The notes below the pieces were generated by a model that was not told where the DNA came from, did not search any database, and saw nothing but the letters and a program-made list of their open reading frames with translations. Shown here piece by piece: positions 7,191 through 63,750 of a stretch of DNA of 64,000 nucleotides. Position numbers and translations under genes: made by a program. The DNA lies in NCBI GenBank assembly GCA_033580375.1, contig GCA_033580375.1_4527.1. The stretch is one strand, 5' to 3'. How positions within the stretch are numbered: the first letter of the stretch is position 1; each line of letters starts with the position of its first letter. Source of the DNA: a phage.

Positions 7191-7379
7191 TTATCGAAAA
7201 TCTGCTTCAAAAACTTTCTCGTCATTAATAAATGCTTTAACTAATGCGTTGTTCACTTCAGCAAGTTGTACCGCAACCCACTCGATTTCTTCACGATCAC
7301 CTGATAACATGATATCTTTAGTGAACATCTCACCGCTTTTAAACCAGCCAATAAAAGTAATTTTAGTTAATTTGCTCAT
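7191..7379 (-). CDS. dmd: Dmd-like antitoxin (inhibitor of RnlA/LsoA-type toxins)
   Basis: FIGWFKSGEMFTKDI...AEVNNALVKAFIND resembles T4 Dmd as recalled; start taken at internal Met. Confidence 0.5.
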   Translation of the reverse strand: MSKLTKITFIGWFKSGEMFTKDIMLSGDREEIEWVAVQLAEVNNALVKAFINDEKVFEADFR

Positions 7380-7693
7380 ATTTCCTCGCAAAATGCCCAT
7401 TCAGCGTGATAAACTGTAGCACCTTTAGTATCATTCATTTGAACTACATCTACCGGAGAAATTACTCGATAGAGACGTGGTTCACCTCCATAAGAGCGTG
7501 CTGCTCGTCCTGCATAAATCTTTGCTAAACCGATATCTTCAGTAAAGAATACACGATCCAAGTTTTTCTTACGTCCGGTTTCAGACAGAACTCCTGTTTC
7601 TTCAGGAGGACAAAGCATGTTTTCGATGTTAGCTGAACTACTTGAACCGTGATAAAAAATCTTAAATTCTGCTTTACAATCAATGGTTTTCAT
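7376..7693 (-). CDS. hypothetical protein
   Basis: 105-aa ORF with SD GGAGAA. Confidence 0.45.
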   Translation of the reverse strand: MKTIDCKAEFKIFYHGSSSSANIENMLCPPEETGVLSETGRKKNLDRVFFTEDIGLAKIYAGRAARSYGGEPRLYRVISPVDVVQMNDTKGATVYHAEWAFCEEI

Positions 7694-7699
7694 TTTGTT

Positions 7700-7748
7700 C
7701 TCCAGTAGTTGATATGTCTATAATAACACAACTACTGGAGAAGTAAAC
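7700..7748 (-). promoter_or_regulatory. early promoter embedded in 12-bp inverted repeat that can sequester the downstream SD
   Basis: minus GTTTAC-tt-CTCCAGTAGTTG-[loop with TGTTATTAT]-CAACTACTGGAG-aacaaa-ATG; 3' arm contains GGAG of the SD. Confidence 0.6.
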
Positions 7749-30729: not shown

Positions 30730-31070
30730 GGCTTAATTTCCTTCGCAATTGAACAGAAGATACTACGGTCACAAAGCATTTCACCAATTTCTGGATATTT
30801 GATTGAACGGTACCAAACATCCAGGCTTGAAACTCTGGTTATCTGTACTGCGTTACCGTTGACAGAATAGTACTGCTCAACCTTAATTTCTTTATCTTCA
30901 ATTGTCATTTTGTTTTCCTCTATAGCAGTTGGTTTAATCTTAACACATCTATCGAGGATGTAAACTGTTTTATGAAAAATATTTTTGATTTGAGAGGGGC
31001 ACAAGGAGATAGTGAAGTGAAGATTCCAATGGATTATATTAGAAATAGGATAAAGAAGACCAGGCGGCAC
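30726..31070 (-). CDS. hypothetical protein
   Basis: 114-aa ORF. Confidence 0.4.
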   Translation of the reverse strand: MPPGLLYPISNIIHWNLHFTISLCPSQIKNIFHKTVYILDRCVKIKPTAIEENKMTIEDKEIKVEQYYSVNGNAVQITRVSSLDVWYRSIKYPEIGEMLCDRSIFCSIAKEIKP

Positions 31071-43224: not shown

Positions 43225-43767
43225 TTATTTCAAAGTCGGGATAACAGAATCAAGATAAGCTTTAAGAGCAACAGCTTCGTCTTTGGTAAACGTAGTAATA
43301 TGTGAACGTAAATCATCAATTTGGCGAATAACTACGACATCACCGTCTTCATAAGAAGGATTAACGCCCAAGACAGTTGTAGAGTCAGGGTTGGCCAGAT
43401 TTGTAATAAAAGCATTACGGCATTTAGCCCATTGAAGTTTGGCCTTTTTGGCTGTTTCAGATTCAATGAATTCTTTCACCTTAGTGACGAATGTTTTCCA
43501 ATTATTAATAGAAAAACATTCGTCTTCAGTTTCGATATTAACCCCACTATAAAGTCCGTGATAAAAACGAACTTGAAGGTCTTCATCAATGTTAATTACA
43601 GATGCATGGCCTGGTGGATTTAGTTTCAAAATCTTGTCCAGTTCCATAGGAAGAATAGTAACAGCATCATCTTCTTGTGTCAGAACGTAAGCGTAACCAC
43701 GTTTTTCGATACATAAATCACCAAACAACTCAGTTGTTTCAATTACAGTTTTCATATTATTCACCAA
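43225..43767 (-). CDS. hypothetical protein
   Basis: 180-aa ORF. Confidence 0.5.
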   Translation of the reverse strand: MVNNMKTVIETTELFGDLCIEKRGYAYVLTQEDDAVTILPMELDKILKLNPPGHASVINIDEDLQVRFYHGLYSGVNIETEDECFSINNWKTFVTKVKEFIESETAKKAKLQWAKCRNAFITNLANPDSTTVLGVNPSYEDGDVVVIRQIDDLRSHITTFTKDEAVALKAYLDSVIPTLK

Positions 43768-44337: not shown

Positions 44338-44536
44338 ACATTTGCAATTCAGTGTGCGTATCAGCCATCTTTTTCATTGCCTTATTGATATCGATATCAC
44401 CGTCTTCACACCCATGGGCATTTTCCCAATCAGATACAGCATTAGCATACTCTTCAATCAAAAACATTAACTTAGAAATTTTTTCTTTACGTGACATAAC
44501 GTTCTCCTCTAGTAAGTAAGGTCTACTATAACACAA
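44318..44536 (-). CDS. hypothetical protein
   Basis: 72-aa ORF. Confidence 0.4.
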   Translation of the reverse strand: MCYSRPYLLEENVMSRKEKISKLMFLIEEYANAVSDWENAHGCEDGDIDINKAMKKMADTHTELQMYVNEIM

Positions 44537-44563
44537 CCTGAGGAGAAGTAAACTGATAGATAC

Positions 44564-47690: not shown

Positions 47691-48149
47691 CTAGATTTTA
47701 ATAACTGCTTTAGAAGCTTTTCCTGGTAGTCGTTTACTGTTAATAATAGCCATTCTACATTGAAGAGTCTTCATTTTGAATGCCGGATTTTCGCGACAAA
47801 CTGTAAGGCCTAGCCAAAGATTTCCATCAGTTATTTCTAAACGGCCTGGGCGGTATTCGACACCTTCGACAAAATCTTCATCAACATCTGGACGTGCCGG
47901 CATTGATAAAAATTCTGCAACTTCTTTAACGTGATTTTTTACTTTACGAAATAATTCAAAAACGTAATTCTCATCTATTTCTCTCTGGATGGCACGATCT
48001 AAGAGATGTTGAGAATACTTGATATGAAAGCCTGGTAGTCCAAGAGACTTTGCAGCATCTTTTATACCGGCATTTATTTTGCGGAACTCCGTTTCAAAGA
48101 TTCGACGGAGTTTATTACGGCGGATAAAAACTTCCGAATTGATAGTCAT
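47691..48149 (-). CDS. regB: endoribonuclease RegB
   Basis: MTIN.EVFIRRNKLRR.FE.EFR.IN...YSQHLLDRAIQREIDE.YVFELF...PGRLEITDGNLWLG.TVC...LQCRMAIINS.RLPGKASKAVIK matches T4 RegB. Confidence 0.9.
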   Translation of the reverse strand: MTINSEVFIRRNKLRRIFETEFRKINAGIKDAAKSLGLPGFHIKYSQHLLDRAIQREIDENYVFELFRKVKNHVKEVAEFLSMPARPDVDEDFVEGVEYRPGRLEITDGNLWLGLTVCRENPAFKMKTLQCRMAIINSKRLPGKASKAVIKI

Positions 48150-48157
48150 TTTGATTT

Positions 48158-48206
48158 CTCCTCTAGTTGACAGGTCTATAGTAACACAACTAGAGGAGAA
48201 GTAAAC
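48158..48206 (-). promoter_or_regulatory. early promoter embedded in 12-bp inverted repeat sequestering regB SD
   Basis: minus GTTTACtt-CTCCTCTAGTTG-[loop TGTTACTATAGACCTG]-CAACTAGAGGAG-aaatcaaa-ATG. Confidence 0.6.
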
Positions 48207-50282: not shown

Positions 50283-50328
50283 TTGCCACGTGTTTACGAA
50301 TTATACCAAAAAAAAAACACGTGGCAAT
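50283..50328 (-). promoter_or_regulatory. sigma70-like promoter (TTGCCA-16-TGgTATAAT) inside a perfect 12-bp inverted repeat
   Basis: plus ttgccacgtgtt...aacacgtggcaa; minus strand reads TTGCCAcgtg-T10-gg-TATAAT. Confidence 0.45.
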
Positions 50329-50452
50329 TCACAGTATTCGGCGATTAAATGTTGATCAGCAAATTTAGATACTAAAGTCAAATTAATATAAGTCATTTAC
50401 CCATCCAAGTAATTATGAATATACTATCACAATTCTAGGAGAAAGTAAACTG

Positions 50453-52119: not shown

Positions 52120-52177
52120 AATTTCCTCCAAGTAGTTGATAGATGTATAGTATCAAAACCCTTGGAGGAAGTAAACA
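52120..52177 (-). promoter_or_regulatory. early promoter with inverted repeat (cctccaag / cttggagg)
   Basis: minus GTTTACttCCTCCAAGggttttgatactatacatctatcaactaCTTGGAGG. Confidence 0.45.
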
Positions 52178-63712: not shown

Positions 63713-63750
63713 TAGGACTACTATAACATAGTCCTACAAAGATGTAAACT
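63713..63750 (-). promoter_or_regulatory. early promoter with TAGGACTA / TAGTCCTA inverted repeat
   Basis: ttaggactactataacatagtcctacaaagatgtaaac. Confidence 0.55.

Follow-up and report, generated by a model that had tools for sequence, protein, structure and literature searches.

Early promoters built into RNA hairpins that may hide the Shine-Dalgarno sequence of the next gene in a T4-type phage

Early-promoter cassettes enclosed by inverted repeats

The DNA analysed here is a stretch of 64,000 nucleotides from a phage (NCBI GenBank assembly GCA_033580375.1, contig GCA_033580375.1_4527.1), called the window throughout. Its subject is a pair of early-promoter cassettes, at 7700-7748 (site 1) and 48158-48206 (site 2), in which an inverted repeat encloses the -10 element of the promoter and takes in the Shine-Dalgarno (SD) sequence of the following gene. 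Over the 6 kb around this finding the identity to RB69-like coliphages of the T4 type (genus Mosigvirus, e.g. ATK47) is 98%, and the window corresponds to the early region, from modA/modB through the internal-protein genes. Because these genes lie on the minus strand, hairpins and promoters must be read on that strand as well, and all features given below are on it unless stated otherwise; a reading made earlier from the letters alone (the sequence-only reading) located both sites correctly and left their functional strand unsaid. A promoter on the plus strand, where TATAAT at 7719-7724 has no usable -35 and was not called by the promoter scan, was rejected.

At site 1 the -35 hexamer of a T4-type early promoter, GTTTAC (7743..7748), abuts the stop codon TAA of the upstream gene (7751-7749). 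The 5' arm of the repeat, CTCCAGTAGTTG (12 nt, 7740-7729), is preceded by tt and followed by tgt; in its 14-nt form, TTCTCCAGTAGTTG (7729..7742), it lies in the promoter spacer, includes the anti-SD CTCC (7740-7737) and is present only in RNA that started upstream. The -10 hexamer TATTAT (7720..7725), with the extended -10 TGT before it and agacatat after it, lies inside the hairpin loop, and transcription is predicted to start at about A7713, a position placed with the help of the preference of RB69 early promoters for a C-rich -3..-1 (PMC1524935). The 3' arm, CAACTACTGGAG (12 nt, 7711-7700) or, as 14 nt, CAACTACTGGAGAA (7698..7711), holds the SD GGAG (7703-7700), after which come aacaaa and the ATG at 7693. 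This ATG opens phrog_2110 (7376..7693), a gene of 105 aa and unknown function. Its stop codon and the start codon of dmd overlap as ATGA at 7379-7376, for which reason production of the Dmd antitoxin may be tied to translation of phrog_2110 and share its control.

Site 2 is built in the same way. Its -35 hexamer GTTTAC (48201..48206) lies 4 nt past the stop codon TAA of the upstream open reading frame (ORF; 48213-48211), and the 5' arm CTCCTCTAGTTG (12 nt, 48198-48187), again preceded by tt and followed by tgt, lies, in its 14-nt form TTCTCCTCTAGTTG (48187..48200), in the promoter spacer. The -10 hexamer TACTAT (48178..48183), followed by agacctgt, sits in the hairpin loop, transcription is predicted to start at about 48171, and the 3' arm CAACTAGAGGAG (12 nt, 48169-48158; 14 nt, CAACTAGAGGAGAA, 48156..48169) holds the SD GGAG (48161-48158) and leads through aaatcaaa to the ATG at 48149. 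The gene that starts here is regB (47691..48149), encoding the RegB endoribonuclease of 152 aa (PF10715, E = 5.9e-69).

The sequence-only reading had claimed a perfect 12-bp inverted repeat around the -10 with GGAG in its 3' arm, and inspection of the sequence bears this out at both sites, where the 12 bp can moreover be extended to 14 bp (TTCTCC.../...GGAGAA); a repeat search returns 19 nt of 89% complementarity with a 17-nt loop. In both cassettes the 5' arm is situated in the spacer, the loop holds the -10 together with the predicted +1, and the start of the 3' arm comes 9 nt past the -10. The stems differ at two positions, both compensated (AG/CT against TC/GA), and the cassettes are paralogous. 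The upstream stop codon TAA precedes the 5' arm by 6 nt at site 1 and by 10 nt at site 2, and in T4 regB the upstream stop is placed similarly close. The terminator scan predicts no terminator between upstream promoters and either cassette, and transcription reading into both is therefore expected. An intrinsic terminator at the two sites themselves was considered and rejected, given that the 3' arms are followed by AACAAAAUG (site 1) and AAAUCAAAAUG (site 2), neither of which holds a U-run, and that none was called by the scan. Rfam families at sites 1 and 2 are absent at gathering score, the hits in the window being two tRNAs only.

Such an arrangement is not expected by chance. The promoter pattern GTTTAC-N17-TAnnAT occurs six times in the window, each time on the minus strand, with 0.2 occurrences expected. 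A count of perfect inverted repeats whose arms measure 12 nt or more and whose loops measure 3-40 nt gives five, against a mean of 0.28 and a maximum of 2 in 100 dinucleotide shuffles, and four of the five bracket the -10 of an early promoter (at 7720, 29814, 48178 and 50305). The RNA fold energies are -27.2 kcal/mol at site 1 and -23.2 kcal/mol at site 2 (z = -6.6 and -4.2), stabilities reached by 0 of 200 shuffles, and the GGAG is predicted to be paired in both the minimum-free-energy and the centroid structures of the two sites. The hairpin is a real and non-random feature of this DNA.

Predicted accessibility of the SD and variation of the paired arms

A scan of the minus strand of the window for cassettes consisting of promoter, leader, SD and ATG yields 30, of which 28 are credible, and the distance from -10 to ATG is tightly constrained among them. 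Accessibility was expressed as the free-energy cost of opening the RNA from SD to AUG, once in a read-through RNA modelled as starting 40 nt upstream of the -35 and once in the promoter's own transcript, modelled as starting 7 nt past the -10; ddG is the cost in the read-through RNA minus that in the own transcript. Hairpins that occlude the SD are referred to as class A and those that leave it free as class B. At site 1 (-35 at 7748, before phrog_2110 and then dmd) the cost is 20.8 kcal/mol in the read-through RNA and 3.9 kcal/mol in the own transcript, a ddG of +16.9 kcal/mol; at site 2 (-35 at 48206, before regB) the two values are 17.7 and 2.8 kcal/mol and the ddG is +14.9 kcal/mol. As a positive control we used gene e (ATG 52944), which in the window carries its classical SD-occluding hairpin, ATACCTCCTATAAACGTGGGAGGTAT (52971-52946, minus strand), with late-promoter motifs inside and before it. 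By the same method its opening costs 16.8 kcal/mol in read-through RNA and 2.2-7.8 kcal/mol in the late-promoter transcripts. In T4 the gene e hairpin cuts lysozyme synthesis 100-fold (PMC3014915). Judged by these modelled energies, the hairpin of gene e is no stronger than the class A ones of site 1 and regB.

Three further cassettes of the window occlude the SD. The one before denV (ATG 52119), at 52123..52176 with its -35 GTTTAC at 52176-52171, pairs TTCCTCCAAG (52170-52161) with CTTGGAGGAA (52132-52123) and has a ddG of +10.4 kcal/mol. Two are weaker: one with its -35 at 44553 (44502..44553, before a 59-aa DUF7438 gene), in which TTCTCCTC (44547-44540) pairs with GAGGAGAA (44509-44502), reaches +7.6 kcal/mol and, unlike the other SD-occluding cassettes, lies directly downstream of a terminator; the other, with its -35 at 30965 (30916..30965, before a 60-aa gene of unknown function), pairs TCCTCGATAG (30958-30949) with CTATAGAGGA (30925-30916) at 9 of 10 positions and reaches +6.9 kcal/mol. 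All remaining cassettes of the window have a ddG below 5 kcal/mol. The occluding design is also found in T4, with ddG values of 17.5 for regB, 15.2 for nrdC.8, 12.8 for modB, 12.3 for motB.2, 10.1 for denV and 9.2 kcal/mol for e.8.

Within the window, promoter spacers pair better with their own SD than with the SDs of other cassettes (permutation p = 0.003). The comparison was widened with cassettes from T4 and from T4-type contigs of IMG/VR, the latter scanned with the pattern GTTTACTTCTCC-N11-TANNAT. In the resulting non-redundant set of 110 cassettes, duplexes of -16 kcal/mol or stronger make up 13.6% of cognate and 1.2% of non-cognate pairs, an 11-fold difference, and the observed mean of cognate pairing is reached by 0 of 20,000 permutations. 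The variable stem positions of the IMG/VR cassettes are compensated, as in TGTAGATG/CATCTACA, TCTGGTT/AACCAGA, GGTGGTT/AACCACT and TCATG/CATGA, whereas chance arm matches in unrelated DNA amount to just 5-7 of 12 positions.

Four lineages of regB orthologues, the most distant of them at about 64% protein identity, keep the hairpin on stems that differ: CTCTAGTTG/CAACTAGAG, TTTTCCTCTTGACTG/CAGTTAAGAGGAGAA in T4 (where the helix has two G.U pairs), CTCTTTATG/CATAAAGAG and CTGTAAG/CTTACAG. Since a MAFFT alignment of the regB cassettes lost the stem register, an arm-swap energy matrix was used instead. In it the spacer of each lineage pairs best with its own leader, with a cognate mean of -22.8 kcal/mol against -14.3 kcal/mol for swapped arms. 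At denV the orthologues show at least four compensated forms of the hairpin. A formal count over 11 cassettes in the same register finds 7 of 14 pairs changed on both sides, with a covariation score of 0.306, where shuffles give 0.117 (0 of 500 attain 0.306) and slid partners at most 0.105. In a larger set of 173 cassettes, made up of the window, T4 (L077, L078) and IMG/VR loci, helix positions that are not Watson-Crick are G.U rather than A.C by 13 to 5 when the -35 hexamer is left out (p = 0.048), and by 6 to 1 in class A alone.

A possible promoter-gated switch and its relation to known systems

We lean towards the view that the SD-occluding cassettes are promoter-gated translational switches, in which an early promoter is built into an RNA hairpin that hides the SD of the next gene. 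The basis for it is the sequence geometry, the thermodynamics, the non-randomness of the repeats, their compensated variation and the conservation at regB and denV, T4 included. RNA polymerase at the cassette's own promoter would start in the loop, with the 3' arm some 1-3 nt further on; the resulting transcript would lack the 5' arm, keep its SD open and be translated, and where the GGAG context fits it would also lie open to RegB. Read-through RNA from the upstream gene would carry both arms and fold a 12-14 bp helix that buries the GGAG, and on such polycistronic RNA the gene would be silent in translation and its GGAG probably shielded from RegB. On this scheme regB, denV and the phrog_2110-dmd pair would be expressed only while their own immediate-early promoter fires, and later read-through RNA would keep serving the distal genes. 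In T4 the early promoters, that of regB included, are off after 2-3 minutes, and regB is described as tightly controlled (PMC3014915); given this shut-off, the switch would confine synthesis of RegB, DenV and the products of the phrog_2110-dmd pair to the first minutes.

The closest precedents are T4 genes e, soc, 49 and I-TevI, whose long transcripts cover the SD and/or AUG with a helix, while RNA from an internal late promoter escapes it and is translated (PMC3014915). Class A cassettes share this logic, in that the promoter lies within or just past the 5' arm and its own RNA is without that arm. The differences are in the promoter, which is a gp55-dependent late one (TATAAATA) in the known group and a sigma70-type immediate-early one (GTTTAC-N17-TAnnAT) in class A; in the timing, which is reversed, as the class A gate would open at the start of infection and close later; in the 5' arm, which in class A is the promoter spacer itself; and in the genes gated, here regB, denV and the unknown gene followed by dmd. 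Because its promoters are not late ones, class A is better regarded as a variant than as a member of the e/soc/49/I-TevI group. The sequence-only reading had invoked the logic of e and soc, describing it correctly (PMC3014915) and passing over the fact that those precedents use late, not early, promoters. We found no case of SD occlusion at an early promoter in the T4 reviews consulted (PMC3014915 among them), although earlier mention of the regB or denV hairpins in older literature is possible, and nothing relevant on promoter-embedded hairpins in the recent T4 literature on start sites and transcriptomes.

That reading had also overlooked a literature in which cassettes of early promoter and stem-loop are already described for T4-type phages. 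These elements, called PeSLs (Arbiol 2010, Comeau 2014), combine an early promoter with a stem-loop, end in SD and ATG and occur in RB49/phi1, T4/PST and KVP40/nt-1; the stem-loop lies between -35 and -10 or over the -10 in RB49 and just upstream of the promoter in T4/PST, one RB49 stem-loop lowered lacZ expression like a strong terminator, and the crossovers of RB49 mini-circles were mapped between -10 and SD (PMC2839356, PMC4122927). The cassettes described here have the structural features of PeSLs, namely an AT-rich upstream region, a sigma70-like early promoter, a stable stem-loop overlapping or adjoining it and a 3' end of SD and start codon, and like PeSLs they are repeated before many small T4-type early genes; one chimeric cassette points to exchange between them. 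They differ in that PeSL stem-loops are described as terminators or attenuators, whereas the class A helix spans from spacer to SD with no U-run after it, and in that class A is found not only in variable regions but also, conserved, at the core genes regB and denV. No part in translation is attributed to the element in the PeSL papers, and the 2010 paper contains neither the word 'translation' nor RB69 (PMC2839356, PMC4122927). Thus PeSLs and SD-hiding hairpins at late promoters are already known, and what seems to be new is the combination of early promoter and predicted SD occlusion.

The element that the helix would hide, the GGAG SD of an early gene, is also the kind of element at which RegB/S1 acts on early mRNAs. 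The RegB/S1 consensus, GGAGRAYARAA, is 11 nt long and single-stranded, and cleavage is blocked by secondary structure (PMC1702504, PMC3014915); the regB mRNA is itself a RegB target (PMC3014915, PMC1702504). Given that structure blocks RegB, the helix should shield the GGAG on long RNAs. The SD context of site 1, GGAGAACAAAA, fits the consensus and is a candidate RegB site, whereas that of site 2, GGAGAAAUCAA, departs from it at positions 7-9, so that the earlier proposal of a RegB site in the same arm is supported by the former context and not by the latter. We found no publication that connects RegB resistance with hairpins embedded in promoters. A separate observation, made in L032, L017 and several cassettes of the window, is that GTTTAC plus TTCTCC and the preferred RegB site, GGAGAAAUAAA(C), are nearly reverse complements of each other; for this reason the helix of some regB cassettes runs on into the -35 hexamer, with 18 of 19 positions paired.

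SD-free hairpins, rival explanations and cassette exchange

Not all promoter hairpins reach the SD. In class B an 8-13 bp hairpin is centred on the extended -10 (tgtTAT), which lies in the loop, and the 3' arm spans from the end of the -10 to about +1. By their -35 these cassettes are those at 63749, 59963, 56494, 55202, 44101, 40094, 6436 and about 29836, with 30263 as a partial case, and the same design is found at T4 ipI, dmd and e.7. The stems vary from cassette to cassette (AGGACTA/TAGTCCT, GGGCTCATGAT/ATTATGAGCCC, AGGTCTAT/ATAGACCT, ACGATAGGAAGA/TCTTCCTATCGT), and because of this variation the pairing itself looks selected. In structure class B resembles the RB49-type PeSL stem-loop. In the set of 173, a terminator-like element lies within 60 nt upstream of 4 of 49 hairpin cassettes and 34 of 124 others (Fisher p = 0.007), and of 0 of 24 class B cassettes (p = 0.001), as called by a crude terminator detector; this scarcity suggests that the hairpins act on read-through RNA or replace terminators. 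The regB cassettes of L093 and L090 can be drawn in both ways: the spacer TGTAAGAT pairs with ATCTTACA right after the -10 (class B), or TCTCCTGTAAG pairs with CTTACAGGAGA at the SD (class A). Their leader holds CTTACA twice, and the two classes of hairpin may therefore interconvert.

These hairpins bear most directly on the explanation that the cassettes are elements of the PeSL type, in which the stem-loop serves mainly to attenuate or end transcription coming from upstream or to protect the upstream mRNA at its 3' end, the conserved cassette of about 60 bp is mainly a recombination site for gene shuffling and the overlap with the SD is incidental. The published RB49 stem-loop with its terminator-like effect and the crossover mapping (PMC2839356, PMC4122927) speak for it, as do the equal frequency of SD-free hairpins in the window, the rarity of hairpin cassettes behind a terminator, as if they replaced one, and a chimeric cassette. 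This last was found in IMGVR_UViG_641509422_000001, where the cassette of the site 1 gene orthologue (L098) and that of denV (L148) are identical over the 41 nt that run from the -35 to 'atcaac' and differ beyond them; L098 has a different leader, and the SD-occluding helix is kept in the denV copy only. From the sequences this looks like a cassette exchange with its crossover between -10 and SD, as in the RB49 PeSL mini-circles; it is the one clear chimera seen. The site 1 region is variable, but regB and denV are conserved genes. Yet at sites 1 and 2 a U-run and a terminator call are absent, recombination needs homology and not intramolecular complementarity, which leaves the compensated arms across lineages unexplained, and the class A 3' arm always takes in the SD, with cognate pairing running 6-10 bp past the CTCC/GGAG core. 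We therefore regard this explanation as unlikely; PeSL shuffling and translational gating are in any case compatible and may both reside in one cassette. Another possibility is translational coupling, in which the SD stays hidden on read-through RNA until a ribosome ending the upstream ORF melts the 5' arm, and downstream output is proportional rather than silenced. Hairpin-mediated coupling is well established in RNA phages and operons, and the upstream stop lies near the 5' arm at both sites and in T4 regB. From the geometry, however, no more than the first 0-4 bp of the 14-bp helix would come within reach of a ribosome at the stop codon, at least 10 bp would stay intact, and coupling has no need of a strong promoter in the loop, so that we consider this explanation improbable.

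The repeat might also act as DNA, either as the operator at which a dimeric protein silences early promoters or as a cruciform or single-stranded DNA hairpin in replication or recombination. It does overlap the core promoter, the shut-off of early promoters is incompletely understood (PMC3014915), and a first count of strand asymmetry was neutral (9:9). An operator would conserve the sequence of its arms, but these vary freely among cassettes and lineages while staying complementary, and a sequence-specific operator was rejected on this ground. A spacer of 17 nt between the arms disfavours cruciform extrusion, the two G.U pairs of the T4 regB stem would be mismatches in DNA, and the refined count of 13:5 leans towards G.U. 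A role at the DNA level seems to us very improbable. Little credence, finally, is given to a non-adaptive origin, in which a leader motif (atCAACTAC..GGAG) and a pyrimidine-rich start of the spacer (TTCTCC) are favoured separately and quasipalindrome mutation perfects the repeat. CAACTAC followed by GGAG is indeed found in leaders whose spacers do not pair (e.g. 40094, 7177, 60301), a spacer that starts with TTCTCC pairs to a moderate degree with whatever SD it is matched to (non-cognate means of -9 to -11 kcal/mol), T4 is the phage in which templated quasipalindrome mutation was originally described, and the hairpin of the site 1 gene is lineage-specific. Against this stand the persistence of the regB hairpin to about 64% protein identity with unrelated stems, the elevenfold excess of strong duplexes in cognate pairs and a stability equal to that of the validated gene e hairpin.

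Several points weigh against the promoter-gated switch itself. The sequence-only reading had proposed the difference in SD exposure between own and read-through transcripts, and the geometry, the predicted accessibility gap matching that of gene e, the lack of an upstream terminator and the covariation agree with it; the start site, the actual read-through, the translational effect and the shielding from RegB are what we infer from sequence. Its statement that the design recurs before many genes holds as to recurrence and not as to number, as SD occlusion is found in 5 of the 28 cassettes of the window and in about 14% of the 173 overall. About as many carry an SD-free hairpin (8-9 class B cassettes in the window), and class B hints at a broader role of promoter-spanning hairpins that is unrelated to the SD. 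Conservation is partial: among regB orthologues the lineage at 56% identity has class B and that at 40% has no hairpin, the denV hairpin is missing in other lineages, and the site 1 gene has its long hairpin in its nearest relatives only, for which reason the argument from conservation rests on regB and denV. The formal pair count is supportive and not unbiased, because its rows were picked for having hairpins, and templated quasipalindrome mutation, known in T4, could yield 'compensated' changes without selection. The excess of G.U pairs leans to selection on the sense-strand RNA; this indication is weak, as the cassettes are non-independent and the first count, with the -35 hexamer included, gave 9 G.U and 9 A.C. 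The helix, moreover, might be opened in part by a ribosome that reaches the stop codon of the upstream ORF, 6-10 nt short of the 5' arm.

If the switch is real, it would be the early-phase counterpart of the ribosome-binding-site occlusion known for T4 late genes, and it would explain how tightly limited products such as RegB are made in a brief burst in spite of ongoing transcription through the gene. More tentatively, and with some doubt, we suggest a portable T-even module, in which the spacer of an immediate-early promoter harbours an anti-SD arm and translation is thereby limited to the RNA of that promoter, the helix shields the GGAG and the whole can be transplanted. Such a module may serve regB, denV and the dmd operon and in T4 also modB, motB.2 and nrdC.8. 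By shielding intergenic GGAG from RegB on long RNAs it may let distal cistrons survive, which would give a reason for the RegB resistance of some intergenic GGAG sites. Residing in a PeSL-like recombining cassette, the control may be movable between genes and lost when exchange separates the arms, and a role in translation would be added to those of promoter-terminator and recombination module in which PeSL cassettes have been seen so far.

Two other repeats of the window were noted. A perfect 13-bp inverted repeat, TTGCCACGTGTTT ... AAACACGTGGCAA (50283-50327, minus strand), encloses a near-consensus sigma70 promoter, TTGCCA-N16-TATAAT with TG (11 of 12 matches), with the -35 in the 5' arm and a loop made up of a T-run and the -10. 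A denV-like N-terminal remnant with a degraded SD lies at 50396-50300 (minus strand), downstream of an early promoter at 50450, and the full denV (52119-51709) is found 1.7 kb upstream of it; as the remnant ends within the 13-bp repeat, the repeat may mark a rearrangement junction. At 43486-43524, away from the promoter cassettes, lies a near-perfect palindrome of 19 nt, GACGAATGTTTTCCAATTA / TAATAGAAAAACATTCGTC, around a centre of 1 nt.

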